Below, in pieces: positions 4,315 through 54,717 of a DNA stretch of 54,717 nucleotides. The DNA lies in the IMG/VR virus record IMGVR_UViG_3300043570_000565, positions 1 through 54,717 of that record. One strand, given 5' to 3'. The position numbers and the translations under genes were made by a program. The stretch's first letter is position 1; each line of letters begins with the position of its first letter. Below the pieces are notes generated by a model, which saw only the letters and a program-made list of their open reading frames with translations, did no database searches and was not told the origin of the DNA. Source of the stretch: a virus (Duplodnaviria; Caudoviricetes).

Positions 4315-4333
4315 CAACTAAAAAAACAAAACA

Positions 4334-21600: not shown

Positions 21601-24600
21601 TAAGGTCCTTAAGGGAGACGTAAACAAGAAGTTAAATGATTTTGCTAATCAGTATGTTGATAAAAAGACAGGTAAGTTATTAGATGTAAACCACGAGGAG
21701 TTCTTAGCTGAGCTTACTGGAGCACTAGAACAACAGGAGGCCAACTTGTCTGTAACTACAATTCAGAAAGTTGCTGCGTTAATTAATGAGTTTGTGTCTA
21801 AGATTACAGGGGGTAAGTTTACCCCATTTGAGGACATAAAGAATACCAAGGATGTAGTTGACTTCTTTAACACCATATCTGGTGCTATCAGAGAAGGTAA
21901 TCAGATACAACAACTAAATAGTCAAGAGCCATATACTTCAGGTGTAGCACTACCTGTAATTAATCCTAATGAATTTGTTGGTAAGAAGTTTAGATCTCAG
22001 CTTGAGATAGGTGATTATAAATTCCCCTCTGGCATAGACATTCTTAGAATAGCTGATCTTCCTATAAAGAATTTAACCGAATTGGTAAAGCAATATGAAG
22101 GTAAAGTTGTTATTATTACTAGTGATGCCACTGGATATGGTGTAGATAAAAATGGAGATCCTATCTTAGGTGGATTTGGATTTGCTTCAAACAAAAAGAA
22201 TGTTGATGATGGTATTGGATTCGCAAGTCTGGGGACTGGTACAGTAAGTGGTACTTATACAGCAGCTGATAAAGCTTATGGTACAGGAAAGACTCTTGTA
22301 CTAGTAATGATTCAACCACCTCATACAACAATTAATAATTCGTATGGTGCTAAGTATATTGTCAGAGGACTAAAAGAAATAGCTGCATCTTCTAAAGAGG
22401 AGTTAGCAAAAACCAAAGAGTCAATTAAGACCTTTATAAAAGATTCTACGGTTATTCAAGACGAATTAAAAAAGATTAAAGGATCAGAGAAAAGATTGTT
22501 TGATTTTATTGATAGCATAAATGAGAACACCAATATAGATGATGCTGTTAAAGAATTCCTAAATGATACTACTTTTACTGTAAGAAAATTACTTGGTCAG
22601 GGTATATTGTTTAAGAATAAAGATATAAGACCTGATTCAAGTACCACGTATAGTAAGATTGCATTTAATAATATTGGATATAATATCTATGATTTCTTAA
22701 AGGAGTATGGTGACAATACAATACTCACAGATGATTTAATACTAAATGATATTGGAGGATATGTTGTTGGTGGATTTGAATTAGATGTAGTTCCTAATGA
22801 TCAAAGAGAAAATATAATAAATGATATTCAAAACAAAGGTATAGTTCATCCATTATTCAACGCTAAACTTCCTGGCACTAATCACTTTAGATTAGATGCT
22901 CTTTATGATGTTGAAGAAAACTTTGCTCAGTACGCAGTACCTGATACTCAGATATCTATACCTAAAGAAGAGAGAGATGCTTTGGTAAGAGAACTTTACA
23001 AAGATGATAGATTCTACTTAGCTAAAAATAGATCTATACCTTTAGAAGAAAGGACATACACTCATCTAACTGTTCCAGCCAAAGTTGAATTTAAGGATAC
23101 GTATTTAAAACCTAGGGGACTACTAATTGAAACAGCTCCAAAAGTTTCAACAAAGGTAGCTAGAGGAGAAGGCTTTATCCCTATAGAAGGTGCCGCTGAA
23201 CAAATGGCGAAGAGAAATTTTGTAAGCAGATCACAGATAAATGAAGAGCTATCAAAGGCATCTGGATCAACACAAGTTGCAACTACAAAGGGCAGTTATA
23301 GAAAGGCTGCAAATATTTTAAAGAATATTGGTGTAGATGGTGAGGTCCTAGACTATGGAGCAGGGCTTGGATTAGGTACTGATGCCATGAGTGAGGTCCT
23401 TGATAAGCCTGTTGATTCATTAGAAATTAATCCAGAAAGATGGAAGGGAATTAGGCCAGTAAAATATACTGATGCCAATCAAATAGATAAGAAGTATGAT
23501 GGAATAGTATCCTTGAATGTAGTAAATGTAGTTCCAAAAGAAGTAAGGGACTTCATTGTTCTTGACATATTTAATAATCTTAAAGAAGGTGGAACTGCTA
23601 TTATAAGTTCAAGAGGATTTAAAGGAGACATTGATGGTGCTAAAAACTTTGTCGATGGAGGTGAAGAAAAAAGTTACATAATAAAAAAGAGAGAGAAGGG
23701 CAAATTTATTTATGTATTCCAAAAGGGATATGATGGTAATGAGTTGTTTGAATATGTTCAAGGTTTATTAGGAGACTCTGCATTAGTATTGCCTAACAAT
23801 ACATTCGGTAAAAGAGGAGTTGTAATAACTAAACTTAGCAATGTAAAAAGCAGATCTCAATTACCTGGCAATGATGCACAGAGAATAGTTAATCTAGGAC
23901 GTGCTAATGGTTTGTCTGATCAAGCGATATCAAATGTATTAGAGAAGCGTGGCTTCACTCAAGAAGCCATTGACACTGCAATAGGTAAGGCTGAGCCTGC
24001 CGCTAAGAAGGTTGAGGTAACTGAGGAGTTTGCTCCGGGGTATGACCGAATGATTGATGAGCTTGAGGGTGTGGTTGAGAAGTCATTAAATCGTGGTACC
24101 ACTGAGGATAGAGCAATGGAAAATGCCATAAACTATCTACAGGGTACTAAGGTATACGAGAACGCTACTGACGTACAGCGTGAGGCTATGGTCCGTGATG
24201 TACGTAAGCGATTCAAGAAGCGTGAGAAGCGTGCTCCTAGTGCTGAGAAGGTAGTAGGTAAGCCAAAGAAGAAGGAGGTTACTGTCGATGAGATGGTAGC
24301 ACTGAAGGACCAGATTAAGCTTGAGGCAAGAGCTGCTCGTGAAGCTAAGGGAGACCTTAATACCAAACGAAAAGCATTGGCTGCTAAGGTGTCTGCATTG
24401 AAGGGTAAGGGAACGGTTACTACTAACCAGCTTGATACTATTATAAGAAGGATTGAGAGAACTAATCTTGACAATCCTATCATGGTAGATAGGTTGCTTG
24501 CATACATTGAGAAGGTGTTTGATAATGCCAACTATGCAGCGGACATGGCTGAGTTAAGAAAGCTACAACGTCAGGCAAGAACCAAGAAGCATACATCAAT

Positions 24601-27600
24601 GAAGGACTTTGTTGATAGGTTTACTTTTATTAATCCAGAGCTTATCCCACTTGATAGACTACAAGACTACAAGGAAGCACTTGACTTCTTGAATAACCTA
24701 ACTCCTTCTTATGCTAGGATGAATGAGATGCTTCCTGAGATTGAATCTTATCAGGTATCTGAAGAGTTTGATGCAGCTAAGACCTTTGATGGTCTTATGA
24801 GTAAGTATGAAAGCATAGCATTGAATGAGGTTGGTAGTGTAGAGGATTATGTTAATTTAATAAAGGACATAAACTCATTTAAGAGAAAGGCATTTCAGTT
24901 ACTACAGAACGAAGCGATTACTCAGGAAGAATATGACAACCTAATTGATATGGTTGGAAAGGATCAGGCTGAGATAGAGAAGAGATATGAAAAAGAAATC
25001 ACTCAGATAAAGAAGGACTTGATTGCTGAGATAAAGAATCAGAGACCAAAGACTAATCCTGAATTCACTAAGGAAGAGAATGATTTAATCAAAGAATACC
25101 TAGAGCTTAGCGATGCTGACCTTGAGAGTCTATCTCCTGAGGACTTGTTTGTACTAAATGATTTGCTTGAGAACGTAAGCAATGGAGAGATTGACTACTA
25201 TAGATTTAAGAACGTAGTGTCAAAGGCAGCCAATAACAAGGCTGGTGTTGAAGTTGGTAAGCAGTTAAAAGCATCTAAGTTAAGTCTTGGGTCGGCAGAA
25301 TTGAGAAAGAAGATGGCTCAGTTTGAAAGCTCATTCTGGGAGGGGCTTCTTGGTTTAGGTAGAGCCACATCAGGTCCACTACAAAAGTTTATTATCTCTC
25401 CTTTCAATAGAGCAATTGGATCATACGAAAAGTTTTTAAGAGATGGATACAATGATTTCTTAAAGCTTAAGAAGAAGTATAAGATTGATGATTCTAAGTT
25501 TATAAAAAGCACTAAGCAAATGAGCAAGATTGGTATGCTAACCACATACCTTCAAGAGTACATGGCTCAGTTTGACCCTAAGAACAAAGGCATTAAGGAT
25601 ATCGGTAAGCGTGATTGGTTCAAGGAAATATTAGACACCGAAACCATGAGGGACGATTACTCCCCTGAAGAGCTTAAGATTATTGAAGAGATTCATAAGA
25701 GTCTACCTAAAGATAAGGATGGTAATGTAGATCCTAAGGCGGTATACGATAGCTACATAGCTAACGATGGTAAGTTCTTTACCAAGAATGAGAAGGGATT
25801 CTTTGATGCAGTAATGGAGTGGAAGAAGAATAACTCAACATCAAAGCAGAAGGCAGCTAATGAAATGAGTGGCAATGCATTTAAGGAGATTCCTTTTCAC
25901 ATGCTTAGATCAAGATACTCTGGCCAGACTTCACAGATTACCCCATCAACATCTGGTGATAATGGTATGATACGAATCAAGGCTGGTACCGGTAAGGAGA
26001 GAGCAAGCGAAGCAGTAGGTGCTATCAATACAAACTTTGAGAAGCTATTCATCAAAGGACTTGAGCAGACTGGAAGAGATTACTTCTTATCCAAGGCACT
26101 AAAGGATATCAACAACGTGTTGGCATCTGCTAAGAAAGAACTTAATGGAGATAAAGATCCGCTAGTTAAGGCTATATCTTATACGCTATCTGATGCATTA
26201 GCTTATGAGTTTAGTGATACAGCTAGTCAGAACATATTGAAGAGATTGGTTCAGGCAAGAGCTGCTATGACATTGTTCGATCCTATCAGAGCAGGAGTTG
26301 AATTTACATCTACTCTACTATCCTTTGGTCTAAGAGCCAGAACATTATCTGGATACAAGAACTTATTCGGTAGTCAGGGAGATATGAGAAATCTACTTGA
26401 GTTCACGGATAGCCCACTAAGACTACGTCAGAATATCAACAATGCAATTGATATCAATGATGGAAGGATAGAACCACAGGGGATGCTTACGAAGTGGACA
26501 ACATTCCTATCTGGTCTACCAGAAAGAACAATGATGGTTACCTCATGGATGCCAACATTCACTAGTGAGTTTCAGAATATCACGAAGGAGAAGTTTGACA
26601 TGAAGAAGTTTAATGATAGCGAAGCATACAGAGAGAAGTATGGTAAGGCAATCAAAGAAGCTTCTGCTGTGGCTGATGCTCAGACTGAGAAGATTATTGG
26701 TCCAACAACAAAGGCAGGACAGAGAAGAGACATTGTAATTTTCCCTGGTAAAACTGTTGGCAGGGACACGGTGTCTGGTCAAATCCTTGGCTTCTTTAGC
26801 AACTATCCTTATCGAGAAGTAACTGAATTTGTAAATGGATTTAAGGAAGCAGGTGAGGTATTAAAGAAAGGTGATACAGTAGAAGCAATCAGTCAGTTGC
26901 AAAAGCCACTGGGTATTGCATTGAACGTGGCTGCCTACGGATTCTTATCCTCAGTAGTATACGCATCCAGATTAATACTTCTTGGAGACGAGGATGAAGA
27001 GGAGAGAGGCAACAAGTTACTTGAGGAGTTGATGACTTCTAAAGGATTCATTGAGGAGACAGCGGCAAATGCAGCAGCATTAGCAGCAAGTAAGTACGCA
27101 GGTGGAGGTAGAGCTATGCTACAGGTGTTAGGCACTTTAGGTATGATGCTGACTGACAATGAGGAAACAAAGACTACAATTAAAAAGATGCTAAAGGGAA
27201 GTGTCTACGTAGATCCTCTACCTACTCAGAAGTTAAGTGGATATGGTACCGCAGATAAAGTAAATACAGCAATACTAAAATACATTCCTCAGCTTGTGGT
27301 GCTTGGAAATATAATTATAGATGGTATTGGGGCTATTAACGAAGTTAAAGCTATATACGACAAGGTAGAAAGCAAAGGAGTGAATGCACTAACAGAAGAT
27401 GAGGAGCTAAGAGTATTAGCATTGAGTGCAATGTTTACAGCAACTCAATTGTACTTAAATTATAAGGGAACATCATTACCATCTTACAACACCTTGAAGG
27501 CAGGAATGAAAACAGTAAAGGAGGAAGCAGGAGTCGCTGATATATCTGCTGGAAAAGTACCTGCCAAAAAGAAATCATCTAGTGGTGGTGGAGGTGGTAG

Positions 27601-27772
27601 AGCTAAGACAATGAACAAGACTGACTTGAAGAAATATAACCGTGAGTTATATGATCAGATGTATGGATCTGGGTCTGCTACTTATGAGATAGAGCAGGAG
27701 ATAAAAGCATTCGAGAAGGAACAACGAGAATTTAAAAAGGATATCAAGGATAGAGTTTTTGGTGGGGACTAA
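18608..27772 (+). CDS. Giant polyvalent ejection protein (zincin-like HExxH domain and class I SAM-dependent methyltransferase domain)
   Basis: 3054 aa; HEIAH at 21521-21535 with downstream HEEFLAE; VLDYGAGLG...YDGIVSLNVVNV...LKEGG at ~23345-23600; last gene of the virion operon. Confidence 0.7.
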   Translation: MEEQLLKDYVATYLNPKYNGDWDLVNSKFPELSGLDKQLLKDYVATYTNPKYNGDWDVVNSKFPELFPAGETSSEPVKKKDTVSPFVDGGSELTRFDPASGQVVQETPEFATSKPEVKIPEQKLPARTEFQYQPGKPLPEQKTAPLPKFVEDQLSTVKPELIGKTEENVVPQLKYQFGPLGFKFEETRAGDYMMATSPSGESIYISLDVVDNKDKEIEANKLNAFLRKGATTVKNLSTLQKQYTDANKKIVSQKELDESLASINAEETKIMARNAEFVKAQNKLEAEKAQLESVPVQQRNNPAYIARVNDFIERADQFSGEFQTFVKDAEDLSKRGQQLNKSIGKYTEMKAEQGTWYGAGLNAFANKSYYNMAKGFTGLTIDLLGEFLPKEALMSQDDYEKNFVDQAKKEGIAIPEGEDFADLTSKMDAETIARIENKVRDLSKKIVKGDMMESLGVTSDMMMKASGVSPEYYKSIENNFVGGALLGTLSSIPAMAGGSLTRTVLMGSQILGGIDEEMSNDPAFEGISENEKYLVKGPITVAVALLEKAGLSNLLNQKGFLNGLVLKALGKASAGASYKTLGGLISNEIDNVAARGALTLGAGFLAEAETGALQEVADITAKEIYNMAKEKEMFDTPDSVVQFIEQVGKAGLQEGIGAGVLSVPGSVSAAYTGKGFLGMDDTQFAMFEKMANDSNIQKGFVARLKSRINNGEITAAEGKDILNNYRNSVGLFNSLPENLDMQGKKEAMNLLKEKRDLERQIDGKDQALTTPQRNRVNEINQQLTKLSEDAVQKQAAGEVPVQPGATVGQEVAQGEPQAEPQGIAQEGQEVVSPTLDLDGEVSLLEQLLAQEETAPTVSAGISISSDTDVEELRNRTQSRSQQATTKEDKESSSTRLSIIDTAKKAINTLKSVFPNLDIVMHEDEGSYNASMQEIGGRAGSRGNFFTDTDQDGNTTGRIDINLSKANSRTVAHEIAHGILINTFGDNVNLFNDFRTRLSKVLKGDVNKKLNDFANQYVDKKTGKLLDVNHEEFLAELTGALEQQEANLSVTTIQKVAALINEFVSKITGGKFTPFEDIKNTKDVVDFFNTISGAIREGNQIQQLNSQEPYTSGVALPVINPNEFVGKKFRSQLEIGDYKFPSGIDILRIADLPIKNLTELVKQYEGKVVIITSDATGYGVDKNGDPILGGFGFASNKKNVDDGIGFASLGTGTVSGTYTAADKAYGTGKTLVLVMIQPPHTTINNSYGAKYIVRGLKEIAASSKEELAKTKESIKTFIKDSTVIQDELKKIKGSEKRLFDFIDSINENTNIDDAVKEFLNDTTFTVRKLLGQGILFKNKDIRPDSSTTYSKIAFNNIGYNIYDFLKEYGDNTILTDDLILNDIGGYVVGGFELDVVPNDQRENIINDIQNKGIVHPLFNAKLPGTNHFRLDALYDVEENFAQYAVPDTQISIPKEERDALVRELYKDDRFYLAKNRSIPLEERTYTHLTVPAKVEFKDTYLKPRGLLIETAPKVSTKVARGEGFIPIEGAAEQMAKRNFVSRSQINEELSKASGSTQVATTKGSYRKAANILKNIGVDGEVLDYGAGLGLGTDAMSEVLDKPVDSLEINPERWKGIRPVKYTDANQIDKKYDGIVSLNVVNVVPKEVRDFIVLDIFNNLKEGGTAIISSRGFKGDIDGAKNFVDGGEEKSYIIKKREKGKFIYVFQKGYDGNELFEYVQGLLGDSALVLPNNTFGKRGVVITKLSNVKSRSQLPGNDAQRIVNLGRANGLSDQAISNVLEKRGFTQEAIDTAIGKAEPAAKKVEVTEEFAPGYDRMIDELEGVVEKSLNRGTTEDRAMENAINYLQGTKVYENATDVQREAMVRDVRKRFKKREKRAPSAEKVVGKPKKKEVTVDEMVALKDQIKLEARAAREAKGDLNTKRKALAAKVSALKGKGTVTTNQLDTIIRRIERTNLDNPIMVDRLLAYIEKVFDNANYAADMAELRKLQRQARTKKHTSMKDFVDRFTFINPELIPLDRLQDYKEALDFLNNLTPSYARMNEMLPEIESYQVSEEFDAAKTFDGLMSKYESIALNEVGSVEDYVNLIKDINSFKRKAFQLLQNEAITQEEYDNLIDMVGKDQAEIEKRYEKEITQIKKDLIAEIKNQRPKTNPEFTKEENDLIKEYLELSDADLESLSPEDLFVLNDLLENVSNGEIDYYRFKNVVSKAANNKAGVEVGKQLKASKLSLGSAELRKKMAQFESSFWEGLLGLGRATSGPLQKFIISPFNRAIGSYEKFLRDGYNDFLKLKKKYKIDDSKFIKSTKQMSKIGMLTTYLQEYMAQFDPKNKGIKDIGKRDWFKEILDTETMRDDYSPEELKIIEEIHKSLPKDKDGNVDPKAVYDSYIANDGKFFTKNEKGFFDAVMEWKKNNSTSKQKAANEMSGNAFKEIPFHMLRSRYSGQTSQITPSTSGDNGMIRIKAGTGKERASEAVGAINTNFEKLFIKGLEQTGRDYFLSKALKDINNVLASAKKELNGDKDPLVKAISYTLSDALAYEFSDTASQNILKRLVQARAAMTLFDPIRAGVEFTSTLLSFGLRARTLSGYKNLFGSQGDMRNLLEFTDSPLRLRQNINNAIDINDGRIEPQGMLTKWTTFLSGLPERTMMVTSWMPTFTSEFQNITKEKFDMKKFNDSEAYREKYGKAIKEASAVADAQTEKIIGPTTKAGQRRDIVIFPGKTVGRDTVSGQILGFFSNYPYREVTEFVNGFKEAGEVLKKGDTVEAISQLQKPLGIALNVAAYGFLSSVVYASRLILLGDEDEEERGNKLLEELMTSKGFIEETAANAAALAASKYAGGGRAMLQVLGTLGMMLTDNEETKTTIKKMLKGSVYVDPLPTQKLSGYGTADKVNTAILKYIPQLVVLGNIIIDGIGAINEVKAIYDKVESKGVNALTEDEELRVLALSAMFTATQLYLNYKGTSLPSYNTLKAGMKTVKEEAGVADISAGKVPAKKKSSSGGGGGRAKTMNKTDLKKYNRELYDQMYGSGSATYEIEQEIKAFEKEQREFKKDIKDRVFGGD
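18617..18805 (+). repeat. N-terminal tandem repeat with a 34-aa (102-nt) period in the giant protein
   Basis: QLLKDYVATYxNPKYNGDWDxVNSKFPEL occurs twice. Confidence 0.9.
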
Positions 27773-43107: not shown

Positions 43108-44709
43108 ATGGAACCTAAAGATTTATTTTTCGCCCAGGAGGGCAGGCTAAAGTTAATCTCTGGCATCAAGAAGATTGCTGGAGCGGTCAAGAGTACGTTG
43201 GGGCCATATGGCAACACAGTACTAATTGAGAGTCCTAATCACACGCATGGTATTACTGTAACTAAGGATGGGGTGACTGTCGCTAAGGCTGTTGACCTGA
43301 TTGACCCTGTGGAGAACCTTGCTGTGAAGATGATGAAGGAGGCGGCTGATAGAACGGCTACTGCTGCTGGTGATGGCACGACTACTGCCATAGTGTTGAC
43401 AGAGGGGTTGGTGCTTGGATGGTTGGAGCACATTGGCACTGAGCAGTTAAATAACACTGAGGTGCTGCGCAACATATCTGAGCTGAGTTCAAAAGTGATT
43501 GAGGGGTTGAAGAGGAAGGGCAAGAAGGTGACTAACTCAATGCTGCTTGACGTAGCGACTATCTCTGCGAACAATGACAGTCACATAGGTCGGATCATTG
43601 CTGATGTGTACAAGGAGGTGGGGAAGAATGGCATAGTAACGGTGGAGCGAAGCCAGACTGCTGACACGTATGCTGAGACCACTAGAGGGTTAAAGATTGA
43701 CAGGGGTTACACAAGCCCACTGTTCATCAACGATCAGAGTAGGGACGAGTGCGTGTTTGAGGATGTGCTGGTGCTGGTGGCTGACATTGAGATAAGTAAT
43801 GTGTTGCAGATTGAGAACGTGCTGAAGCCAATCATCCAGGAGGGGAAGAAGCTACTGATCGTATCGCCATGCCACGTGAACGTGGTGAACACCTTGGCGG
43901 CAAACGTGATGAAGAGTAACCTAAAGATGTGCGTGGTTCAACCACCTAGCTTCGGGTACCGACAGCATGAGCTGATGCAGGACCTGGCGGTGAGTGTTGG
44001 GGCAACATACTTCAGTGAGAAGACCGGGGATGACCTGAGTCAAATTACTATTGCTGACCTAGGGCATGCAGCCAGAGTAGTGGTTGGCAAGGACAAGACC
44101 ATCATACTCAAGAGTGACCTCAAGCTCGACACAGTAAAGATTGAAGAGAGGGTACAGCAGCTATGGCAGGCGCATAAGATTGCTAAGAAGAAGGCTGACA
44201 AGGACCATCTGTTGGAGCGAATCGCCTCCCTTACGGGAGGGATAGGTGTGATATACGTAGGTGGGCAGACTGACCTGGAGCAGAAGGAGCTGTACGACCG
44301 TGTTGATGATGCGGTGTGTGCGGTACGATCCGCTCTGGAGGAGGGCATACTACCAGGTGCAGGCAAGGCATTGCTTGACGAGAGTGCAGCACTCATTCCT
44401 ACTGGCAGCTTTCACTATAGCCCTGAGCTGAGTGTGGCGATTAAGATCCTATCCAATGCGATGATGGCACCATTCCAGCAGATCCTAGCAAACGCTGGGC
44501 TCAAGCCTAGTGACGTGTACAAGGAGGCGATGCCTGTGGGGCATGGGTACAACCTAAAGACTGGACAGATGGGTGACCTGATTAAGATGGGTGTGATTGA
44601 CCCGTTGAAGGTGACACGCAGTGCGTTGCAGAACGCTGTGAGTGTAGCGACAACTATATTGAGCACTAACGCCATCATAACTATGGCACGATCATACGAG
44701 ACCAGATAA
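43108..44709 (+). CDS. groEL: Chaperonin GroEL (phage-encoded)
   Basis: TLGPYG, TKDGVTVAK, AGDGTTTA, DRGY, ALEEGILPGAG and GVIDPLKVTRSALQNA motifs; no GGM tail. Confidence 0.95.
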   Translation: MEPKDLFFAQEGRLKLISGIKKIAGAVKSTLGPYGNTVLIESPNHTHGITVTKDGVTVAKAVDLIDPVENLAVKMMKEAADRTATAAGDGTTTAIVLTEGLVLGWLEHIGTEQLNNTEVLRNISELSSKVIEGLKRKGKKVTNSMLLDVATISANNDSHIGRIIADVYKEVGKNGIVTVERSQTADTYAETTRGLKIDRGYTSPLFINDQSRDECVFEDVLVLVADIEISNVLQIENVLKPIIQEGKKLLIVSPCHVNVVNTLAANVMKSNLKMCVVQPPSFGYRQHELMQDLAVSVGATYFSEKTGDDLSQITIADLGHAARVVVGKDKTIILKSDLKLDTVKIEERVQQLWQAHKIAKKKADKDHLLERIASLTGGIGVIYVGGQTDLEQKELYDRVDDAVCAVRSALEEGILPGAGKALLDESAALIPTGSFHYSPELSVAIKILSNAMMAPFQQILANAGLKPSDVYKEAMPVGHGYNLKTGQMGDLIKMGVIDPLKVTRSALQNAVSVATTILSTNAIITMARSYETR

Positions 44710-45544: not shown

Positions 45545-46081
45545 TTAGAATAACTTTTTGCTTACACCTATCTGGTGAATATTCTGTAGTGGCTGGTACT
45601 GGTACTCAAAGATGTACTTGTTGTCCAGGTAGGCTACTGCTGCGCCTGGTTGTAACAGAGAGTTCACCGTTGCGCCTAGATATAATCCTTTGCTCTTCTT
45701 TATAATTGTCTTAGTCTCTGTGTTCGTAACCGTGTTGGTTACCACAGGTATTTTAAAATCGTTCGTAACGCTCATTTTAAGTACCTCTCCGAGGACTTCT
45801 CCACTAACGTAGGTGTTACCATACTCGAAAGGAGTCGTGGTGCTGAACAAGCTTATAGTAGGCTTATATTCTTCTAGGACTGTATCCCTAACAAACTGTG
45901 ATTTTATCCACATTTTCGGCACATAAACTGTGTCCTTGACCTCGATAATCAAAGTGTCCGTATTTGTCACGCTTTCAAACTTGTATACCGTTTCCGATTC
46001 AGGCTTTGGCATTATAAGAAATGCTAAAATGATTCCTGCTATAAAAGAAATGATCGATGTAAGTATTCTCTTGTCTTCCAT
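45545..46081 (-). CDS. Membrane-anchored protein, possibly spanin-like
   Basis: N-terminal TM helix, DTL/DTVY/DTV motifs and a beta-rich C-terminus. Confidence 0.45.
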   Translation of the reverse strand: MEDKRILTSIISFIAGIILAFLIMPKPESETVYKFESVTNTDTLIIEVKDTVYVPKMWIKSQFVRDTVLEEYKPTISLFSTTTPFEYGNTYVSGEVLGEVLKMSVTNDFKIPVVTNTVTNTETKTIIKKSKGLYLGATVNSLLQPGAAVAYLDNKYIFEYQYQPLQNIHQIGVSKKLF

Positions 46082-49460: not shown

Positions 49461-49619
49461 ATGAAAAGCAAAGGACTAGGAGATACTATTGAAAAAGTAA
49501 CTACAGCTACTGGGATCAAGAAGGTAGTTGAAACTGTTGCTAAGGCCGCAGGCAAAGATTGTGGCTGTGGAAAAAGAAAAGATGCACTTAACCGTGCTTT
49601 CCCATATAACGAAGATTAA
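49461..49619 (+). CDS. Conserved small phage protein
   Basis: GLGDTIEK...GIKK...DCGCGKRKDALN. Confidence 0.65.
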   Translation: MKSKGLGDTIEKVTTATGIKKVVETVAKAAGKDCGCGKRKDALNRAFPYNED

Positions 49620-49630
49620 TTAATAAGATC

Positions 49631-49888
49631 ATGGCATATCAAAAATTACAACAATCAAGAGCGGCAGTAGTAACGAAGAGCGATACTGTTGACATTCCAA
49701 ATCCAGGAAATGGAGAGGTAACAGGATGTATATTGTACGTAGGTACCGGAGGAATCCTTCGAGTGCTAACAGCAGGGGGAGATGACATTACATTCCAGAA
49801 TGTACCAAATGCATTTGTTACTAGCTTTCAAGTAGTTAGAGTATTTGCTTCTACTACAACAGCTTTAAACATTGTAGCTCTCTGGTAA
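49631..49888 (+). CDS. Head spike base protein (Rcc01079-like)
   Basis: AAVVTKSD...LYVGTGG...VVRVFASTTTALNIVALW. Confidence 0.65.
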   Translation: MAYQKLQQSRAAVVTKSDTVDIPNPGNGEVTGCILYVGTGGILRVLTAGGDDITFQNVPNAFVTSFQVVRVFASTTTALNIVALW

Positions 49889-50173
49889 ATGAATCCTCAC
49901 GAGAATAGTAGGCTTGATTATATGGCAGCAGAATTGGATGCGTTAAAGAATGACGTGTCTGAAGTGAAAGCTATAGTTAAAGATATGCACACGTTGCTTT
50001 CAGGTAATCCCATTGACAAGGACTCTAATGGAATGATTGGAGACTTGAGGACAATGAAGAAAGAAGTTTACGAATTGAAGTCTGAATTAAAGAAATACAA
50101 GAATTATTTTTATGCGCTTGTCACACTTGTTGGATTGGGGGCATTAAAAGTTATTGTTGAAATATTGAAGTAG
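49889..50173 (+). CDS. Coiled-coil plus C-terminal TM protein (possible holin/lysis accessory)
   Basis: Two heptad stretches followed by a single hydrophobic helix. Confidence 0.45.
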   Translation: MNPHENSRLDYMAAELDALKNDVSEVKAIVKDMHTLLSGNPIDKDSNGMIGDLRTMKKEVYELKSELKKYKNYFYALVTLVGLGALKVIVEILK

Positions 50174-50175
50174 TA

Positions 50176-50634
50176 ATGAACCAAGGCTTAAAGATAATAA
50201 GTAAGTCTCCAAGTTTTAAAAAAATTGACATGGGAGATTACATCCTTGTAATAGGCAAGGATGCTACTGATATATTTAAGTTTTACAATGTAGAAGAAAT
50301 GCATGGGCTAAATTTAAAAGATGCTCAAGCAGAAGAGGTTGACAAGACAAAAGGTAACGGAGTCTACATCTATGGTCTTACAAACTATGATCCAGATGAT
50401 AAAAAACTTACAGCAAAAAATCCATACAAGCCTTTTATTTTCTTGAATATGGGTGCGTTTAAGAGATACAGTGCTGATGAGCAGAAGACAGCTATTATGC
50501 ATGAGACTATGCATCTAGCTATTTTGCTTAACAACTGGGACATAAAAGATAAAGAAGAAGAGGCAATAACTTTTGCTGAAGATGAGGCTAATAAAATTAT
50601 AAAAAAACTTAAAACTCTAGCTCTTATAAAGTAA
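50176..50634 (+). CDS. Zincin-like metalloprotease-motif protein
   Basis: IMHETMHL (HExxH) with downstream EEEA. Confidence 0.55.
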   Translation: MNQGLKIISKSPSFKKIDMGDYILVIGKDATDIFKFYNVEEMHGLNLKDAQAEEVDKTKGNGVYIYGLTNYDPDDKKLTAKNPYKPFIFLNMGAFKRYSADEQKTAIMHETMHLAILLNNWDIKDKEEEAITFAEDEANKIIKKLKTLALIK

Positions 50635-50771
50635 TGGCAAAGGCTAAGATTTCAATCGCAAACACATACGTCAAGAAGTCTAACAGTAAAGGCGTAGCTG
50701 CCAAGACCAAGACTAGTACAAGTAAAGGAAGTATTCTTTATAAGAAGCCATATAAAGGCCAAGGACGATGA
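50634..50771 (+). CDS. 45-aa basic peptide ending YKGQGR
   Basis: MAKAKIS...KKPYKGQGR; overlaps both neighbours. Confidence 0.6.
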   Translation: MAKAKISIANTYVKKSNSKGVAAKTKTSTSKGSILYKKPYKGQGR

Positions 50772-50992
50772 AAAAATTATTTGATTGGTTAAAAGGCTTC
50801 TTGTCTGAAAATGGAGAAGCATCTTCTAAAAGATTTGTTGGAGTATTTGCTGCAATAGCTTTGTGCTATACGCTTTATGCCAACCATGATTCGGCTAACG
50901 AACCATCAGAAGCTTTAGTTTATTCGGTTGCTGCTTTATCTGCTGCTGCTTTAGGTATTACGGCAGCTGAGAAGATATTCAAGAAGGAATGA
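50768..50992 (+). CDS. Holin-like 2-TM protein
   Basis: 74 aa; SSKR motif, two hydrophobic helices and a charged C-terminus; upstream of the endolysin. Confidence 0.6.
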   Translation: MKKLFDWLKGFLSENGEASSKRFVGVFAAIALCYTLYANHDSANEPSEALVYSVAALSAAALGITAAEKIFKKE

Positions 50993-51741
50993 AGAACTTA
51001 AGCAAGGAGGAACTACTAAGTCGAATGGAGGCAATTAATCGTAGCAATGCGATTATTTACTTTGACTTAAATGGTTTTATCCTTGGAGTAAACGCTATCT
51101 TCTTAGAGGCTATGGGCTTGGGTGAAGATGAGCACGATAAACTTATTGGAAAGCATCATTCGATTTTTGTTAGCTACGAGTATTCTAAGTCTGAAGACTA
51201 CACAAAGTTCTGGGAAACGCTTAGGGCTGGAAAATTTTACGAAGGTGAATTTGAAAGAAGAAAGATAGATGGTAGCCCTATTTATTTGCAGGCTACATAC
51301 AATCCTATCTTTGACGAAAGCGGTACTATCACTAAGATAATGAAGATAGCTACCGATATTAGCCAAACTATTGTAAGTAAAAATAAGATTGGTGAACTAT
51401 CTAAAAGTTTGCAGGCTGAGTTAGAAAACTCAAATAAGTTAAGGGCAGCGATTGAGATTGAAAAGGATGCAGCAGTTAATGACTTGGATGCAACAATTAA
51501 GAAAAGTCAAAACGAACTGATTAAGGTAATTGTAAAGTCTGCCTTATTCGTGATTATGTCGGTAGGGTTTATTACTACTATCATGTACTCGTTTGCTATT
51601 CTTTCGAATAAGGATACGCAAATCATTGGATCTACTTGGTCAAATATGTTTTCGGTTTTATTGACGAATGCCTTCTCTATTGTCGGCACAATCATGGGAA
51701 TTAAATACGCAACTTCAGAAGATAAAAAAAATAAGGAATGA
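50989..51741 (+). CDS. PAS/PAC-domain, coiled-coil, 2-TM protein
   Basis: AINRSNAIIYFDLNG...GKHHSIFV...FWETLRAG...EFERRKIDG...ATYNPIFDESG...KIATDI matches the BdlA/MCP-type PAS consensus; two C-terminal TM helices. Confidence 0.85.
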   Translation: MKNLSKEELLSRMEAINRSNAIIYFDLNGFILGVNAIFLEAMGLGEDEHDKLIGKHHSIFVSYEYSKSEDYTKFWETLRAGKFYEGEFERRKIDGSPIYLQATYNPIFDESGTITKIMKIATDISQTIVSKNKIGELSKSLQAELENSNKLRAAIEIEKDAAVNDLDATIKKSQNELIKVIVKSALFVIMSVGFITTIMYSFAILSNKDTQIIGSTWSNMFSVLLTNAFSIVGTIMGIKYATSEDKKNKE

Positions 51742-52199
51742 AAATTAGTCAACACTTAAATCTATCAGAGCTCACTAGAAGTGACTCTGCAAAGCGTCAC
51801 GGCATTGACAACACTCCTACTGCTGAGCATTTAGAGAACTTTAAGTTACTAGCGGAGAAAGTATTTGAGCCTATCCGCGCACACTTTGGAGTTCCTATTC
51901 ATATCAGCTCTGGGTACAGGTCAGAGGCTCTCAATAAATTCATTAAGGGAAGTGCATCCAGCCAGCATTGTAAGGGCGAAGCGATTGACATCGACATGGA
52001 TGGCAGTAGTAGTGGGGTTACTAACAAGATGGTCTTTGACTTTATTGTTGCTAACCTTGATTGGGACCAGATTATATGGGAGTTTGGAACTGACTTTAAT
52101 CCAGACTGGGTACACGTATCATATACTAAAGGCAAGAACAGAAAGCAAAAGTTAAAAGCTGTGCGTACGAATGGTAAGACTTCTTACCTTAATCTTTAG
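51738..52199 (+). CDS. Endolysin, peptidase M15A family
   Basis: SSGYRS, SQH-x6-D and WVHVSY motifs. Confidence 0.9.
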   Translation: MKISQHLNLSELTRSDSAKRHGIDNTPTAEHLENFKLLAEKVFEPIRAHFGVPIHISSGYRSEALNKFIKGSASSQHCKGEAIDIDMDGSSSGVTNKMVFDFIVANLDWDQIIWEFGTDFNPDWVHVSYTKGKNRKQKLKAVRTNGKTSYLNL

Positions 52200-52207
52200 T
52201 ATATTTG
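52200..52207 (+). promoter_or_regulatory. -7 box (TATATTTG), tail fibre
   Basis: Matches TAnnTTTG directly after the endolysin stop. Confidence 0.65.
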
Positions 52208-52226
52208 TTCAATTACTTAATAGCAA

Positions 52227-54717
52227 ATGGCAAAGATAAGTACATACCCAATACTATCAACACCTACAGTCAATGACATATTAATTGGAACTGATGTAGA
52301 TGACTTGAATATCACCAAGAACTTCTCGATAGGTTCGATAATAGGGATAGTTGGTAATCAGTTTGTGCCATACACTGGTGCAACTGGGAATGTAAACTTA
52401 GGTGCTTTCAGCATTACTGCCGATTCTTTTATTGTTGCAGGAGGACTTGCTACTCAGTTTGTAAAGGCTGATGGAAGCCTAGACAGCACAGTCTATGTAC
52501 CTGCTAGCAGAACACTTACGATCAATTCTGTAACATTTGATTTAAGTGCTAACAGATCTTGGGATCTAAACACAATTAATTCTTTAACAACCACTGGTAC
52601 AAGCGGTCCTGCCACCTATATTGGCAAGACTCTTAATATTCCACAGTACCAGGCTCAGGGCAACTACATCACTCAGCTTAGTGGTGAGGCTACTGCTATG
52701 GGCCCGGGTAACGCTACAGTTACATTAAGCAACCTGGCTGTAATCAGCAAGATACTAACAGGGTTGAATATTACTGGTGGTACTATTGTCGATACAGACA
52801 GCATCCTTACAGCATTTGGCAAGGTACAAAACCAGCTAAATGGATTAACTGGTGGGGTTACTTACCAAGGAACTTGGAACGCTGCTACTAACACGCCAAC
52901 TTTAACTAGTTCAGTAGGAACAAAGGGATACTACTACGTAGTAAATGTTGCAGGTAGTACCAACCTAAATGGTATTACTGACTGGAAGCTTGGTGATTGG
53001 GCCATCTTTAATGGCTCGACTTGGGAGAAGGTAGACAATACCGATGCAGTCGTTAGTGTTAACGGCTACACGGGTGCTGTTGTGCTTACGTTCAGTGATG
53101 TCGGAGCACCTCCAGCAACAAGAAATCTTACTATCAATGGAGTCCAGTTTGACTTGACTGCCGATAGAACATGGACGGTAGGTGATGTACGTACAGACCA
53201 GAGCTATGCTAACCCGACATGGATTACTGCACTTGCATGGTCCAAGATTACAGGAACACCTACTACTCTTGCAGGGTACGGCATTACTGATGGTGCTTTA
53301 AAGACAACTACACTTACTATAAACGGTGTAACATTTGACTTGTCTGCTAATAGGAGTTGGAGTGTAGGTACAGTTACGTCAATTGCCACAACTGGACCGC
53401 TTACAGGAGGAACTATTACAGGTTCAGGCACAATTGGAATCACACAGGCAGGTGCAAGCTCAGATGGATATCTATCTAGCACTGACTGGAACACGTTTAA
53501 CAACAAGCAGAACGCATTAACCAATCCTGTAACAGGGACTGGTACGATTTTTACTTTGCCCATGTGGGGTGGTGCTACATCTTTGATCGATAGCCCACTA
53601 TCCTATGGATCAGATAACTTTAACTTTCAGTACAATAGTGCAACTGGTGGATCAGTAACCTTTACGAATAGTGGGTTGACTGCTTATGCGTACACTATAC
53701 AGATGAACAACTTCGGTTCTCCTAGATCAACTGTACATGGCTACACTGATGGGATTGTCGTTCAATCTATAGCTGGAACTCAGGTATCTAGGATGTTTGC
53801 CAATGGTAATCTAATTCTAGGTACAGGTACTGTAGAGACTGGTCATAAGCTAACTATTAGTGGAGACTTATTTGTAAATACAATTATTAATGCTGTCACA
53901 GATACAGATAGATTTATTGTAAGTGATGGAGGAATAATTAAGTACAGAACAGGTGCTCAGTTATTAAGTGACATTGGAGCACAGGGTTCTTTGACTTTAA
54001 CTACAACAGGCACAAGTGGAGCGGCAACATTAATTGGCAATACATTAAATATCCCTCAGTACACTGACCAATTTGTAGGTACGGTTACTAGTGTAGGGCT
54101 TAGTATGCCTATTGCATTTACTGTATCAAACAGCCCTGTAACAAGTGCTGGTACACTTACTGTTGTAGGTGCAGGTTTAGCATCTCAGTATGTTAGAGGT
54201 GATGGTACTCTTGGAGACTTTCCAAGTGGCGGAGGTGGCGGAGGCTCATCTGTATCTTACTACTTAAATGGCTCTATAAATCAAGGGACATTTGCAGGCA
54301 ACACGTACTATGAGATGAGTAAGGTTCCAGTATTTGGAGCTGGCACTGATTTTAATATTGCTACAGATGGATACGTTGCTCAGTTTATTACTGATGCCAA
54401 TGACCCTGAATCATTATTAATTCCAGCAGGAAACTGGAACTTTGAGCTTTATTTCTCTGCATCATCTAGTGGGGGGACTCCATCATTCTATGTTGAGTTG
54501 TATAAGTACGATGGTACCACATTCACTTTGATTGCAGACAACTCTGCTAACCCTGAGTTGATTGCTTTTGGAACTATCATCAATCCTTACTTCTCACCAC
54601 TGGCTGTTCCTGAGACTGTGTTGGCTATTACTGATAGACTTGCTATTAGAGTGTATGTCAATAACTCAGGAAGAACAATTACGCTACATACTGAGAATAG
54701 TCACCTTTGCCAAATCA
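52227..54717 (+). CDS. Tail fibre protein (3'-truncated; absent from the ORF track)
   Basis: ATG at 52227 and the frame matches at the window end; Gly/Thr-rich; VPYTGATGNVNLG, YQGTWNAATNTP, three LTINxVxFDLxAxRxW and two TTTGTSGxAT...LNIPQY repeats. Confidence 0.85.
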   Translation, partial: MAKISTYPILSTPTVNDILIGTDVDDLNITKNFSIGSIIGIVGNQFVPYTGATGNVNLGAFSITADSFIVAGGLATQFVKADGSLDSTVYVPASRTLTINSVTFDLSANRSWDLNTINSLTTTGTSGPATYIGKTLNIPQYQAQGNYITQLSGEATAMGPGNATVTLSNLAVISKILTGLNITGGTIVDTDSILTAFGKVQNQLNGLTGGVTYQGTWNAATNTPTLTSSVGTKGYYYVVNVAGSTNLNGITDWKLGDWAIFNGSTWEKVDNTDAVVSVNGYTGAVVLTFSDVGAPPATRNLTINGVQFDLTADRTWTVGDVRTDQSYANPTWITALAWSKITGTPTTLAGYGITDGALKTTTLTINGVTFDLSANRSWSVGTVTSIATTGPLTGGTITGSGTIGITQAGASSDGYLSSTDWNTFNNKQNALTNPVTGTGTIFTLPMWGGATSLIDSPLSYGSDNFNFQYNSATGGSVTFTNSGLTAYAYTIQMNNFGSPRSTVHGYTDGIVVQSIAGTQVSRMFANGNLILGTGTVETGHKLTISGDLFVNTIINAVTDTDRFIVSDGGIIKYRTGAQLLSDIGAQGSLTLTTTGTSGAATLIGNTLNIPQYTDQFVGTVTSVGLSMPIAFTVSNSPVTSAGTLTVVGAGLASQYVRGDGTLGDFPSGGGGGGSSVSYYLNGSINQGTFAGNTYYEMSKVPVFGAGTDFNIATDGYVAQFITDANDPESLLIPAGNWNFELYFSASSSGGTPSFYVELYKYDGTTFTLIADNSANPELIAFGTIINPYFSPLAVPETVLAITDRLAIRVYVNNSGRTITLHTENSHLCQI

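Follow-up and report, generated by a model that had tools for sequence, protein, structure and literature searches.

The lysis cassette of an uncultured freshwater phage, analysed within a 54,717-nt stretch of DNA (the window), contains a membrane protein with a PAS sensor domain (PAS-TM), encoded between a holin-like gene and an endolysin gene, in that order. PAS-TM is a conserved lysis-cassette member rather than a one-off neighbour, and it is accessory. Because it is kept beside lysis enzymes in hundreds of related phages, it may time host bursting by an intracellular signal, and we see a roughly even chance that it acts in the cassette as an accessory membrane component coupling a cytoplasmic signal to the time of inner-membrane breach, an effect of PAS-TM on either membrane permeability or the timing of lysis being purely what we infer.

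The cassette belongs to a tightly packed block of six genes (all features described here are on the + strand), which orf94 (49889..50173) opens and the endolysin closes. The orf94 product has an N-terminal helical/coiled region and one C-terminal transmembrane (TM) segment (aa ~73-94), an XhlA-like predicted architecture; its matches are weak (phrog_33933, 6.5e-7; phrog_937 'hemolysin', 0.011), and its relatives (cluster c10) match phrog_937 at 2.2e-6 and, below the cut-off, Pfam XhlA at 0.0013. Downstream are orf152 (50176..50634), which encodes a soluble 152-aa protein with an HExxH-like motif (MHETMH) and only sub-threshold matches in Pfam and PHROGs, and orf45 (cluster c8; 50634..50771), which encodes a very basic 45-aa peptide with relatives beside lysis genes in 12 of 80 loci. 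The candidate holin gene c1 (50768..50992; 74 aa), PAS-TM (50989..51741; 250 aa) and an endolysin gene of the Peptidase_M15_3 type (51738..52199; 153 aa) complete the block. The initial annotation had placed ATGA overlaps at 50989 and 51738; both are present (50989-50992 and 51738-51741), and the chain extends upstream, with a further ATGA at 50768-50771 (orf45 stop/c1 start) and a TAATG at the 50634 junction. By its sequence, the whole block, ending in the endolysin, is predicted to be translationally coupled. Scanning the region for promoters and terminators yielded nothing above chance; a weak terminator-like hairpin (52173..52188) lies at the end of the endolysin gene and does not exceed chance expectation, since two such sites were found in the region versus 3.0 in shuffled sequences. 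Three metatranscriptome runs each contained 0.05 of the sampled words, and RNA reads at 80% likeness led to contigs of relatives less than 90% alike, one of which (925 nt) spans PAS-TM into the endolysin; such libraries can contain DNA, so these contigs are no evidence of transcription.

The last gene of the block encodes an M15 endolysin, as first read (Peptidase_M15_3, 9e-20, 71.3 bits against a cut-off of 23.2; phrog_894 'endolysin', 1e-35); a sequence comparison with solved structures gave no relative at E ≤ 0.001. In no 19-aa window does its mean hydropathy exceed 1.5, it lacks an N-terminal hydrophobic segment, and it is predicted to be soluble and not of the SAR type; that is, the N-terminal signal-anchor-release segment by which the endolysin partner of a pinholin is recognised is absent. 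The GH19 and GH24 endolysins that partner PAS-TM in other loci likewise begin with polar sequence.

For the PAS-TM protein itself, the proposed PAS domain (aa ~12-126; 51022..51366) was borne out by matches that exceed the curated thresholds of four Pfam models (PAS_9, PF13426, 42.6 bits, cut-off 27, 8e-11 over aa 22-126; PAS_3, PF08447, 40.7 bits, cut-off 25.6; PAS, PF00989, 39.1 bits, cut-off 22.6; PAS_4, PF08448, 31.1 bits, cut-off 23.1) and of the NCBIfam model TIGR00229 sensory_box (9.2e-13, 48.4 bits, cut-off 22.9). PAS is the only domain among the Pfam matches, in agreement with the claim that the protein carries no kinase, MCP or cyclase output domain, and no PADLOC match was found. 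As a signal peptide is absent, the PAS domain is predicted to be cytoplasmic. It is followed by a helical linker (aa ~127-175; 51367..51513) and a TM hairpin composed of TM1 (aa ~176-206; 51514..51606), which is hydrophobic and moderately variable (π at codon positions 1+2, 0.17), and a short outer loop with TM2 (T210-T242; 51616..51714), which is invariant and amphipathic; hydropathy places the two helices, both anticipated in the initial annotation, at about aa 176-206 and 214-240. Two smaller details of that annotation gave way. The best heptad register of the supposed ~50-aa coiled coil has L/I/V/M at 7 of 16 a/d positions, a weak signal for which '~50-aa fixed-length helical linker' is the better name, and the supposed short basic tail (K239-E250) is of mixed charge, net about +1, and not clearly basic. 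In 101 of 103 proteins the distance between the last PAS motif and the TM2 motif is exactly 95 residues, with no indel in the linker and TM1 (in the other two proteins the search pattern missed the last PAS motif). The TM hairpin matched no holin or antiholin family in Pfam or PHROGs, the C-terminal module had no usable match in the ESM Atlas, and the hairpin is unrelated to c1 (hhalign probability 1.2%). A candidate family for PAS-TM, phrog_1544, was set aside as unspecific: 19 of 27 members match it (best E 3.8e-4), but so do 11 of 14 control genomes.

A chemoreceptor-type origin of the PAS domain, as had been suggested, is supported by the closest cellular relatives, which are soluble multi-PAS chemoreceptors: of eight close cellular homologues examined, seven combine multiple PAS domains with an MCPsignal domain, and the alignments, at 36-46% identity over PAS, continue into the PAS-to-MCP linker helix. 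By sequence comparison, the PAS domain and linker thus appear to derive from PAS-MCP chemoreceptors. PAS-TM resembles soluble multi-PAS MCPs of the BdlA/McpS architecture in this degree of PAS identity, in the linker helix that follows and in the tandem PAS units of some members, but has a TM hairpin in place of the MCP signalling hairpin. The database name 'methyl-accepting chemotaxis protein' is an over-annotation for the family: MCPsignal (PF00015), the domain that defines such proteins, had no match on PAS-TM.

The proposed flavin binding was not supported by residue mapping. The closest solved sequence is PAS-A of the FAD-binding redox sensor MmoS (3ewk; E 1.2e-9, aa 25-144), for which the FAD-pocket residues listed in the available part of the source include H132, N164 and R195 (PMC9668731). 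When these three were mapped (T103 of MmoS was left out), the His alone was kept (H132 = H57), whereas N164 corresponds to an invariant Arg (R90) and R195 to Ala (A121); the output also differs, being a TM hairpin and not a kinase. The mapped residues therefore do not place PAS-TM among FAD-binding PAS domains of the MmoS/Aer/NifL type, nor do they support for PAS-TM the FAD binding that is predicted, in the part of the source available, for the BdlA and McpS PAS domains (PMC8694187). The NifL NCBIfam model reached 28 bits on PAS-TM against a cut-off of 242. Among the heme-binding types (FixL, DosP and Aer2), which are recognised by an axial His at the position characteristic of the family and by a heme spectrum, a DosP model matched at E 0.0014 (profile positions 142-251); PAS-TM has an invariant H56-H57.

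With one of three mapped flavin-pocket residues kept and no cofactor motif assignable in the domain, the PAS domain may act for dimerisation alone, PAS domains often being dimerisation modules according to the accessible part of one account (PMC8694187); as a scaffold setting the oligomeric state of the hairpin, it would leave PAS-TM constitutive rather than signal-gated. We regard this as quite improbable, given that strong purifying selection acts on the PAS core and extends to buried polar residues such as H56, H57, R90 and N105 (across 145 PAS units, H56-H57, W75, E89-R90 and Y104-N105-P106 are invariant), that the cellular relatives are chemoreceptors, and that the PAS domain is duplicated in 2xPAS forms with an exact spacing (121 residues in 40 of 40) typical of sensory arrays.

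PAS-TM was found solely in uncultured material, where viral contigs contain 503 confirmed stretches and metagenome contigs at least 551, and it carries one or two PAS domains across the family; in the deposited phage genomes searched, the PAS part alone matched, in three records. Loci were retrieved by exact peptide patterns, and the sample is accordingly biased to conserved members. Whether homologues might be unlinked to lysis genes was examined, and linkage was found instead: among 80 viral loci, 72 encode an M15, GH19 or GH24 endolysin on the strand of PAS-TM and no more than 2.5 kb away, 50 of the 80 have it as the immediate neighbour of PAS-TM, and six of the eight loci without one end right after PAS-TM. 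Endolysin homologues were also found in 60 of 79 loci of a second viral set (flanks up to 3 kb a side), in 61 of the 74 metagenome loci whose flanks were long enough, and beside PAS-TM in all three family members on MAG contigs. Other neighbours include the canonical holin Phage_holin_4_1 and spanin-like genes, and either c1 or a Phage_holin_4_1 gene lies within 2.5 kb in 65 of the 80 loci. Because the architecture recurs beside endolysins in hundreds of independent contigs, its position is not due to chance. Around PAS-TM, the 80 loci have 36 different five-gene arrangements, and on a tree of 102 PAS-TM proteins the neighbouring endolysin family switches approximately 19 times, compared with a mean of 35.6 (minimum 28) when labels were shuffled on the same tree. 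The link to endolysins thus persists through these rearrangements and switches.

The check that the initial annotation had proposed, whether the TM module also occurs alone as a holin, gave no such case: none of the 227 loci (80 + 79 + 68) contained a PAS-less form. Among 13 short database proteins with the TM module, 12 begin inside the PAS sequence and are therefore truncated gene calls; the sole case with its own N-terminus is P0239 (126 aa). No protein of 439 aa or more with the TM module was found, although this is weak evidence.

The upstream gene c1 encodes two hydrophobic segments, consistent with its first description as a holin-like 2-TM gene, and the positive N-terminus and charged C-terminal tail of its product predict an N-in/C-in topology; we treat it as a candidate holin. 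It had no match in Pfam, PHROGs, NCBIfam or PADLOC and no tblastn match in deposited phages. At least 7744 proteins among 8000 candidates scored belong to its family at E ≤ 0.001, with no Pfam domain and no 'holin' name among the 120 matches listed. c1 is fast-evolving (mean column identity 35% in alignment A2, down to about 20%), and the locus scan used a single c1 sequence as A2 was too variable. In 80 loci with a c1 relative (73-100% identity), PAS-TM was present in 33 and absent from 47, which would fit the dispensability of an antiholin. The endolysin start lies within about 25 nt of c1 in 32 of these 47 loci, and unrelated membrane genes lie between c1 and endolysin in others; in one locus (L093), a spanin-like pair occupies the PAS-TM slot while orf94, orf45, c1 and an 88%-identical M15 gene are kept.

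PAS-TM is the slowest-evolving gene of the cassette: its diversity at codon positions 1+2, divided by that at position 3, gives 0.24, compared with 0.37 for the M15 gene and 0.52 for c1. TM2 (T210-T242) is invariant in 27 aligned sequences, with a diversity of 0.48 at third codon positions, where synonymous sites are near saturation, versus 0.036 at positions 1+2, and 103 proteins show only three rare conservative changes in it. The helix is strongly amphipathic (hydrophobic moment 0.94), with a Ser/Thr/Asn/Gly face (S215, T216, N219, S222, T226, N227, S230, G233, T234 and G237) that forms a small/polar ladder at i, i+4. Read together, the fixed linker length, the constraint and the invariant TM2 look like hallmarks of a signal transducer. 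A co-evolving interface between c1 and TM2 is disfavoured, since TM2 is invariant, c1 is variable and c1 is missing from a 93%-complete record; the combination points to a more conserved partner, whether PAS-TM itself, a lipid or a host protein.

A conserved partner of TM2 would also suit a different role, in which PAS-TM is no timing device but a late membrane protein whose TM2 binds a conserved host inner-membrane component (respiratory, transport or envelope-synthesis) for host takeover, energy management or superinfection exclusion, the lysis region being a hot spot for membrane genes. Such a partner best explains an invariant TM2 beside a variable c1, no holin or antiholin homology was found for PAS-TM, and unrelated membrane genes also occupy the slot between c1 and the endolysin. 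However, the linkage spans three endolysin families, either gene order and many genome backbones (among them contigs of 118 and 272 kb in which PAS-TM and the endolysin form a two-gene pair), which makes a lysis role hard to avoid; in addition, the start and stop codons of PAS-TM overlap those of lysis genes, and other occupants of the slot are lysis-type genes (spanin-like pairs). We therefore consider a host-directed role unlikely.

It is similarly doubtful, in our assessment, that PAS-TM is itself the hole-former, that is, a holin- or pinholin-like channel with the polar face of TM2 as the lining of an oligomeric pore, the PAS domain as a gate shut until the signal arrives, and c1 and the small TM proteins as partners or redundant. 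PAS-TM has the features by which a holin is recognised (at least one TMD, a charged C-terminus and a gene next to an endolysin), here with two TMs in a predicted N-in/C-in topology and the amphipathic TM2 ladder, but at 250-370 aa across the family it is larger than is usual for a holin. In five loci (L065-L068 and L198), a 2xPAS form lies immediately upstream of a PG_binding + GH19 endolysin and has no other TM gene next to it, and two records with PAS-TM, 93% and 76% complete, lack c1; both observations would suit a hole-forming PAS-TM. Yet near-identical c1 + endolysin cassettes manage without PAS-TM, which is thus not the essential holin in those cassettes, and c1 or Phage_holin_4_1 is close by in most loci (the 65 of 80 noted above), with c1 lying 6.5 kb off in L065-type records. 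Holins as a class evolve fast, whereas PAS-TM is the most constrained gene of its cassette. Furthermore, a small pinhole alone would be insufficient, because the endolysin is soluble and would not be released through it. The pairing of PAS-TM and endolysin in the large-phage loci L065 and L198 fits a self-sufficient holin as well.

In the reading that we prefer, that of an accessory component coupling a cytoplasmic signal to membrane breach, PAS-TM would sit in the membrane with both termini inside, and its PAS domain would shift conformation when a ligand binds or leaves. A rigid linker could carry this change to the TM hairpin, which would restrain or trigger the real hole-former (c1 or the Phage_holin_4_1 holin), either through helix-helix contact in the membrane or by opening a small channel that depolarises it. 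The endolysin, which is predicted to be soluble and to be translationally coupled to the genes before it, would then get to the wall; the effect of PAS-TM could be a delay or an advance of lysis. More tentatively, and with a probability that we place clearly below even, a PAS-gated module with a wide distribution among phages of freshwater Flavobacteriia-like hosts reads the intracellular state (redox, energy, oxygen, a metabolite or light might serve as input) and sets the moment of lysis via an invariant helix that lines a pore or binds a target, for instance by forming a small depolarising channel to trigger the true holin.

Lysis timing determines phage fitness and burst size and, to our knowledge, T4 lysis inhibition is the only well-studied case in which it depends on a signal. 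In T4, the antiholins RI (periplasmic) and RIII (cytoplasmic) act on the holin T, and the signal is superinfection, sensed outside the cytoplasm. PAS-TM would resemble RI and RIII as an accessory lysis protein, dispensable for lysis, that ties holin triggering time to a signal (proposed for PAS-TM), but RI and RIII lack a PAS domain and are unrelated to PAS-TM in sequence. In PAS-TM, a predicted cytoplasmic PAS domain and a TM hairpin are parts of one protein, and holin binding is only a candidate property. The S pinholin of the lambdoid phage 21, a class II holin/antiholin, works with a SAR endolysin. It shares with PAS-TM two TM helices in an N-in/C-in arrangement, a possibly pore-lining helix with small/polar residues at i+4 and a gene adjoining the endolysin; in contrast, PAS-TM has 175 aa of cytoplasmic sensor and linker, an endolysin without a SAR or signal segment, no holin family match, and far stronger conservation than is usual for holins.

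The initial annotation knew of no described PAS-holin system, and we likewise found no account of PAS-TM in the literature searched. If our reading is correct, phages can read the internal state of the host at the last step of infection. On the more tentative reading above, PAS-TM would be the first known sensor domain hard-wired to the lysis machinery at the protein level and represent a previously unrecognised class of lysis control. Because the family is abundant in environmental data while the PAS part alone appears in three deposited phage records, a mechanism that is common in the environment may have gone unnoticed. As a two- or three-gene system, it could also give a ligand-controlled lysis switch.

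A phage-borne PAS sensor that decides the time of host killing (proposed for PAS-TM) has a parallel in VqmA-Phage, a phage-encoded PAS-domain receptor of vibriophage VP882 which, in the part of the account available, is a soluble DNA-binding transcription factor in a lysogeny-lysis switch (PMC8284805). PAS-TM, in contrast, is membrane-anchored, has no DNA-binding domain and lies inside a late lysis operon. The named relatives of its source phage are lytic-looking podophages.

The window is a linear-class record of 54,717 bases with an estimated completeness of 90%, and its portal protein matched 87 deposited phage records, with an uncultured podovirus from a spring as the top match (77%). The 86 phages with a named host, at listed identities of 47–50%, are all from Flavobacteriaceae (Flavobacterium 68, Cellulophaga 15, Tenacibaculum 2, Maribacter 1). 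At 49631–52199, plus-strand genes lie head to tail in the order orf85, orf94 (49889–50173), orf152 (50176–50634), orf45 (50634–50771), c1 (a candidate holin of 74 aa, 50768–50992), PAS-TM (250 aa, 50989–51741) and the endolysin M15 (51738–52199; Peptidase_M15_3, 9e-20; phrog_894, 1e-35), whose N terminus has no hydrophobic segment. The first two genes abut with a gap of 0 nt, orf94 and orf152 are 2 nt apart, orf152 and orf45 share a TAATG overlap, and the orf45/c1, c1/PAS-TM and PAS-TM/M15 junctions are ATGA overlaps. The initial annotation had correctly described the three terminal genes: c1, which has two hydrophobic segments and no family match; PAS-TM, with a PAS domain, two transmembrane (TM) segments and no other domain; and the M15 endolysin. 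PAS-TM matched four Pfam PAS models and TIGR00229 with scores above their curated thresholds, Pfam and NCBIfam profile searches recovered no domain besides PAS, and the TM segments span approximately residues 176–206 and 214–240. Two finer features call for more cautious wording: heptad periodicity in the linker described as a coiled coil is weak (best register, L/I/V/M at 7 of 16 a/d positions), and the C-terminal tail, described as basic, is of mixed charge. In source annotations, family members are named 'methyl-accepting chemotaxis protein' despite having no MCP signalling domain, and many database entries of 122–209 aa are truncated gene calls whose first Met is a codon inside the PAS domain.

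PAS-TM belongs to lysis cassettes across many phage backbones. A scan of viral contigs returned 268 relatives. For the best 80 of the 268 (72–100% identical over full length), ORFs on the same strand and up to 2.5 kb away were grouped into clusters of neighbours. An endolysin-family gene was present in 72 of the 80 loci (the immediate neighbour in 50), with M15 in 42, GH19 in 24 (representative: Glyco_hydro_19, 5.1e-8; phrog_181, 3.2e-67) and GH24 in 9 (representative: Phage_lysozyme, 4.1e-38; phrog_7, 2.2e-49). In six of the eight loci without one, PAS-TM was the final ORF before the locus end, and in L010, L030 and L038 the start of an M15 gene was visible by tblastn at the cut. The other two of the eight are L071, a plain miss, and L054, which had a 181-aa protein upstream of PAS-TM and a spanin-like pair downstream. 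That 181-aa protein (L054 4456–5001), without a family match and in the expected endolysin position just 5′ of PAS-TM, may be an undescribed cell-wall enzyme.

Three more samples pointed the same way, bearing out the adjacency to endolysins that the initial annotation had proposed as a test. A second viral scan, for which a divergent C-terminal module served as the seed, gave 503 confirmed stretches, and 60 of 79 new loci had an M15, GH19 or GH24 homologue in flanks of up to 3 kb a side; this set included contigs of 118–272 kb in which a form with two PAS units lies directly 5′ of a PG_binding + GH19 endolysin. A metagenome scan queried with two TM2 peptides gave at least 596 stretches (at least 551 confirmed), with an endolysin homologue in 61 of the 74 loci that had more than 700 nt of flank, and three contigs of metagenome-assembled genomes labelled Flavobacteriales, Saprospira and Saccharibacteria carried two-PAS forms with a GH19 homologue nearby.

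Other lysis-type genes also recurred around PAS-TM: c1 in 57 of the 80 loci (directly upstream in 34, directly downstream in 13), a Phage_holin_4_1 holin (8.5e-9) in 9, overlapping pairs resembling inner- and outer-membrane spanins, single lipobox proteins with a C-terminal TM segment resembling unimolecular spanins, and XhlA-like coiled-coil + TM proteins. Taken over five genes, the 80 loci show 36 arrangements, and the endolysin may lie before or after PAS-TM. On a FastTree phylogeny of 102 distinct PAS-TM proteins (the neighbour was labelled for 93), the adjoining endolysin family switched roughly 19 times, compared with a mean of 35.6 for shuffled labels (s.d. 2.5, minimum 28), and the one-PAS/two-PAS state changed once. 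Because the endolysin family switches while the linkage stays, the linkage is to lysis function rather than to one particular gene. Proteins of approximately 180–210 aa with an N-terminal TM segment and a beta-rich body (clusters c6 and c22) directly adjoin the endolysin in numerous loci, as well as in the deposited phage MW202828 (for example, L005-type loci and L330 1871–2494); the window's c6 homologue (45545–46081, minus strand) lies 5 kb off on the opposite strand. Such proteins may help these phages to disrupt the outer membrane. Near the window's own cassette (49600–52300), neither a spanin pair nor a unimolecular spanin could be recognised.

PAS-TM is accessory to the cassette. Approached from c1 (80 loci with a relative at 73–100% identity), PAS-TM was present in 33 and absent from 47, of which 37 have more than 900 nt on each of the two sides of c1. 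In 32 of these 47 loci an endolysin starts within approximately 25 nt of the c1 end, 14 have other genes in the gap and 1 is cut. In one example (L090), c1 and M15 are 97% and 90% identical to those of the window and the endolysin follows c1 directly. Another (L093, with 4236–4887 compared against 49600–52300 of the window), which shares orf94, orf45, c1 (100% over 72 residues) and M15 (88% identical) with the window, has a spanin-like pair exactly in the PAS-TM slot and a lipobox + C-terminal-TM protein 3′ of the endolysin; in L107 the slot is filled by two multi-TM proteins. The nearest deposited relative, MW202828, runs from Phage_holin_4_1 through a 207-aa N-terminal-TM protein to M15, with no PAS-TM, and a search of 50,697 deposited phage records gave three matches, to the PAS part alone and covering at most 53% of the query. 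PAS-TM is nearly always near another candidate hole-former: c1 or Phage_holin_4_1 lay within 2.5 kb in 65 of the 80 loci, c1 was 6.5 kb away in three L065-type records, and c1 was not found in two PAS-TM records (76% and 93% complete).

The constraint on PAS-TM is unusual. In an alignment of 27 sequences (74–98% identical to the window's protein; mean column identity 85%), residues T210 to T242, spanning TM2, are all invariant. Nucleotide diversity in this stretch was 0.036 at codon positions 1+2 and 0.48 at position 3, compared with 0.109 and 0.49 in the PAS domain, 0.17 and 0.53 in the linker, and 0.17 and 0.55 in TM1; with the codons threaded in this way, low diversity at positions 1+2 and high diversity at position 3 indicate selection on the protein. 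Between T210 and T242, 103 distinct full-length proteins drawn from every viral locus differed only by S222G, V223I and I238V (four proteins each), in a sample whose loci were found by exact peptide patterns, some inside this stretch, and whose proteins were picked by one 8-residue motif; 21 further residues of the stretch lie outside that selection, and the c1-retrieved set gives the same invariance. D209, immediately N-terminal to the stretch, is Glu in 15 of the 103, and variants only 62–65% identical overall still keep T210–T242. TM2 is strongly amphipathic (hydrophobic moment 0.94), with S215, T216, N219, S222, T226, N227, S230, G233, T234 and G237 on one face.

Across 22 loci with all three genes (231 pairs), PAS-TM was the most conserved (mean pairwise identity 0.83; diversity ratio of positions 1+2 to 3, 0.24), followed by M15 (0.78; 0.37) and c1 (0.64; 0.52), the identity of PAS-TM exceeding that of M15 in 193 pairs and that of c1 in 179. 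The chief puzzle is that TM2 is invariant beside a c1 that varies, which tilts the balance away from a simple antiholin specific to c1 and towards a homo-oligomeric pore or a conserved host partner. That PAS-TM is a self-sufficient gated holin or channel is a reading that we consider unlikely and that, if true, would set the protein further apart from known systems. We consider it just as unlikely that PAS-TM is a membrane protein made late that acts on a conserved target in the host and plays no part in timing. The TM module had no relative outside the family in Pfam, PHROGs, ESM Atlas, size-based and profile searches, and is unrelated to c1 (hhalign probability 1.2%). Nor did it occur alone, a check that the initial annotation had suggested: no PAS-less form was found in 80, 79 and 68 loci (overlapping collections, not 227 independent phages). 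One candidate for a TM module on its own is the database protein P0239 (126 aa).

The PAS domain has chemoreceptor ancestry. Exhaustive comparison by phmmer with 1.84 billion representative proteins yielded 31,239 matches at E ≤ 0.001; the best 150 were mainly multi-PAS proteins, 27–46% identical, and distant single-PAS relatives would fall beneath these. Among the matches listed, four extend past the PAS domain and linker (P0012, 251 aa, 88%; P0006, 371 aa, 70%; and two shorter). Seven of eight close cellular homologues checked carry three to seven PAS units and an MCPsignal domain, and in a BLASTP comparison with one of them the phage domain aligned to each of four repeats at 36–44% identity and on into the linker; on these grounds, its assignment as chemoreceptor-type was right as to origin. 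The expected binding of heme or flavin by this subtype found no support in our analysis. Among solved structures, the closest in sequence is MmoS PAS-A, which binds FAD (3ewk, 1.2e-9) and for which the Aer PAS structure paper names pocket residues T103, H132, N164 and R195 (PMC9668731). In our alignment H132 is kept (invariant H57), and N164 and R195 are replaced by an invariant R90 and by A121, respectively. BdlA and McpS PAS domains appear, in another source, as FAD binders by prediction only (PMC8694187). Use of the PAS domain as a mere dimerisation scaffold would be a further reading, which we judge very improbable.

Of 103 proteins, 101 have exactly 95 residues between the final PAS motif and the TM2 motif (the search pattern missed that PAS motif in the remaining two), and all 40 of the 40 two-PAS proteins have their units spaced by exactly 121 residues. 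We infer that such a fixed linker length would be expected if a conformational change must travel along a rigid helix. PAS-TM would sense something, the signal would pass from the PAS domain to the TM hairpin, and the hairpin would act on lysis. We give roughly an even chance to PAS-TM being a sensor-coupled regulator of holin triggering, in either direction, and we rate it as belonging with the accessory regulators of phage lysis, an already known kind. Judged by titles and the beginnings of abstracts, open-access papers and preprints combining PAS domain or Per-Arnt-Sim with holin, antiholin, lysis cassette or phage-encoded describe no such protein. The nearest described is reportedly VqmA of vibriophage VP882, a soluble PAS transcription factor.

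Several smaller features accompany these cassettes. The product of orf94 (49889–50173, plus strand) has a coiled-coil-like N terminus and a single C-terminal TM segment; it and its relatives (clusters c10 and c59) lie upstream in many cassettes of the family and match XhlA/'hemolysin' PHROGs weakly (phrog_937, 0.011 for the window's protein and 2.2e-6 for one relative; the Pfam XhlA score falls short of its cut-off). Directly 5′ of c1, orf45 (50634–50771, plus strand) encodes a very basic 45-aa peptide; similar peptides (cluster c8) lie beside lysis genes in 12 of the 80 loci, and L107 has an unrelated, equally basic 40-aa peptide in the same position. Some c1 variants (L069 4463–4717; L073 2681–2947) begin M-K-M-K-K or M-R-M-K-K, giving, from ORF calls alone, two in-frame starts two codons apart with a basic residue between, reminiscent of dual-start holin/antiholin genes. 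HExxH-like motifs occur in small soluble proteins of the cassette area (MHETMH, window 50176–50634, plus strand; HEVAH, L065 7312–7719, with a weak Peptidase_M48 match), which may be metallopeptidase-like accessories. Elsewhere, the plus strand of the window encodes a 3054-aa ORF (18608–27772) and a GroEL-like chaperonin (43108–44709; phrog_5725, 1.4e-132).
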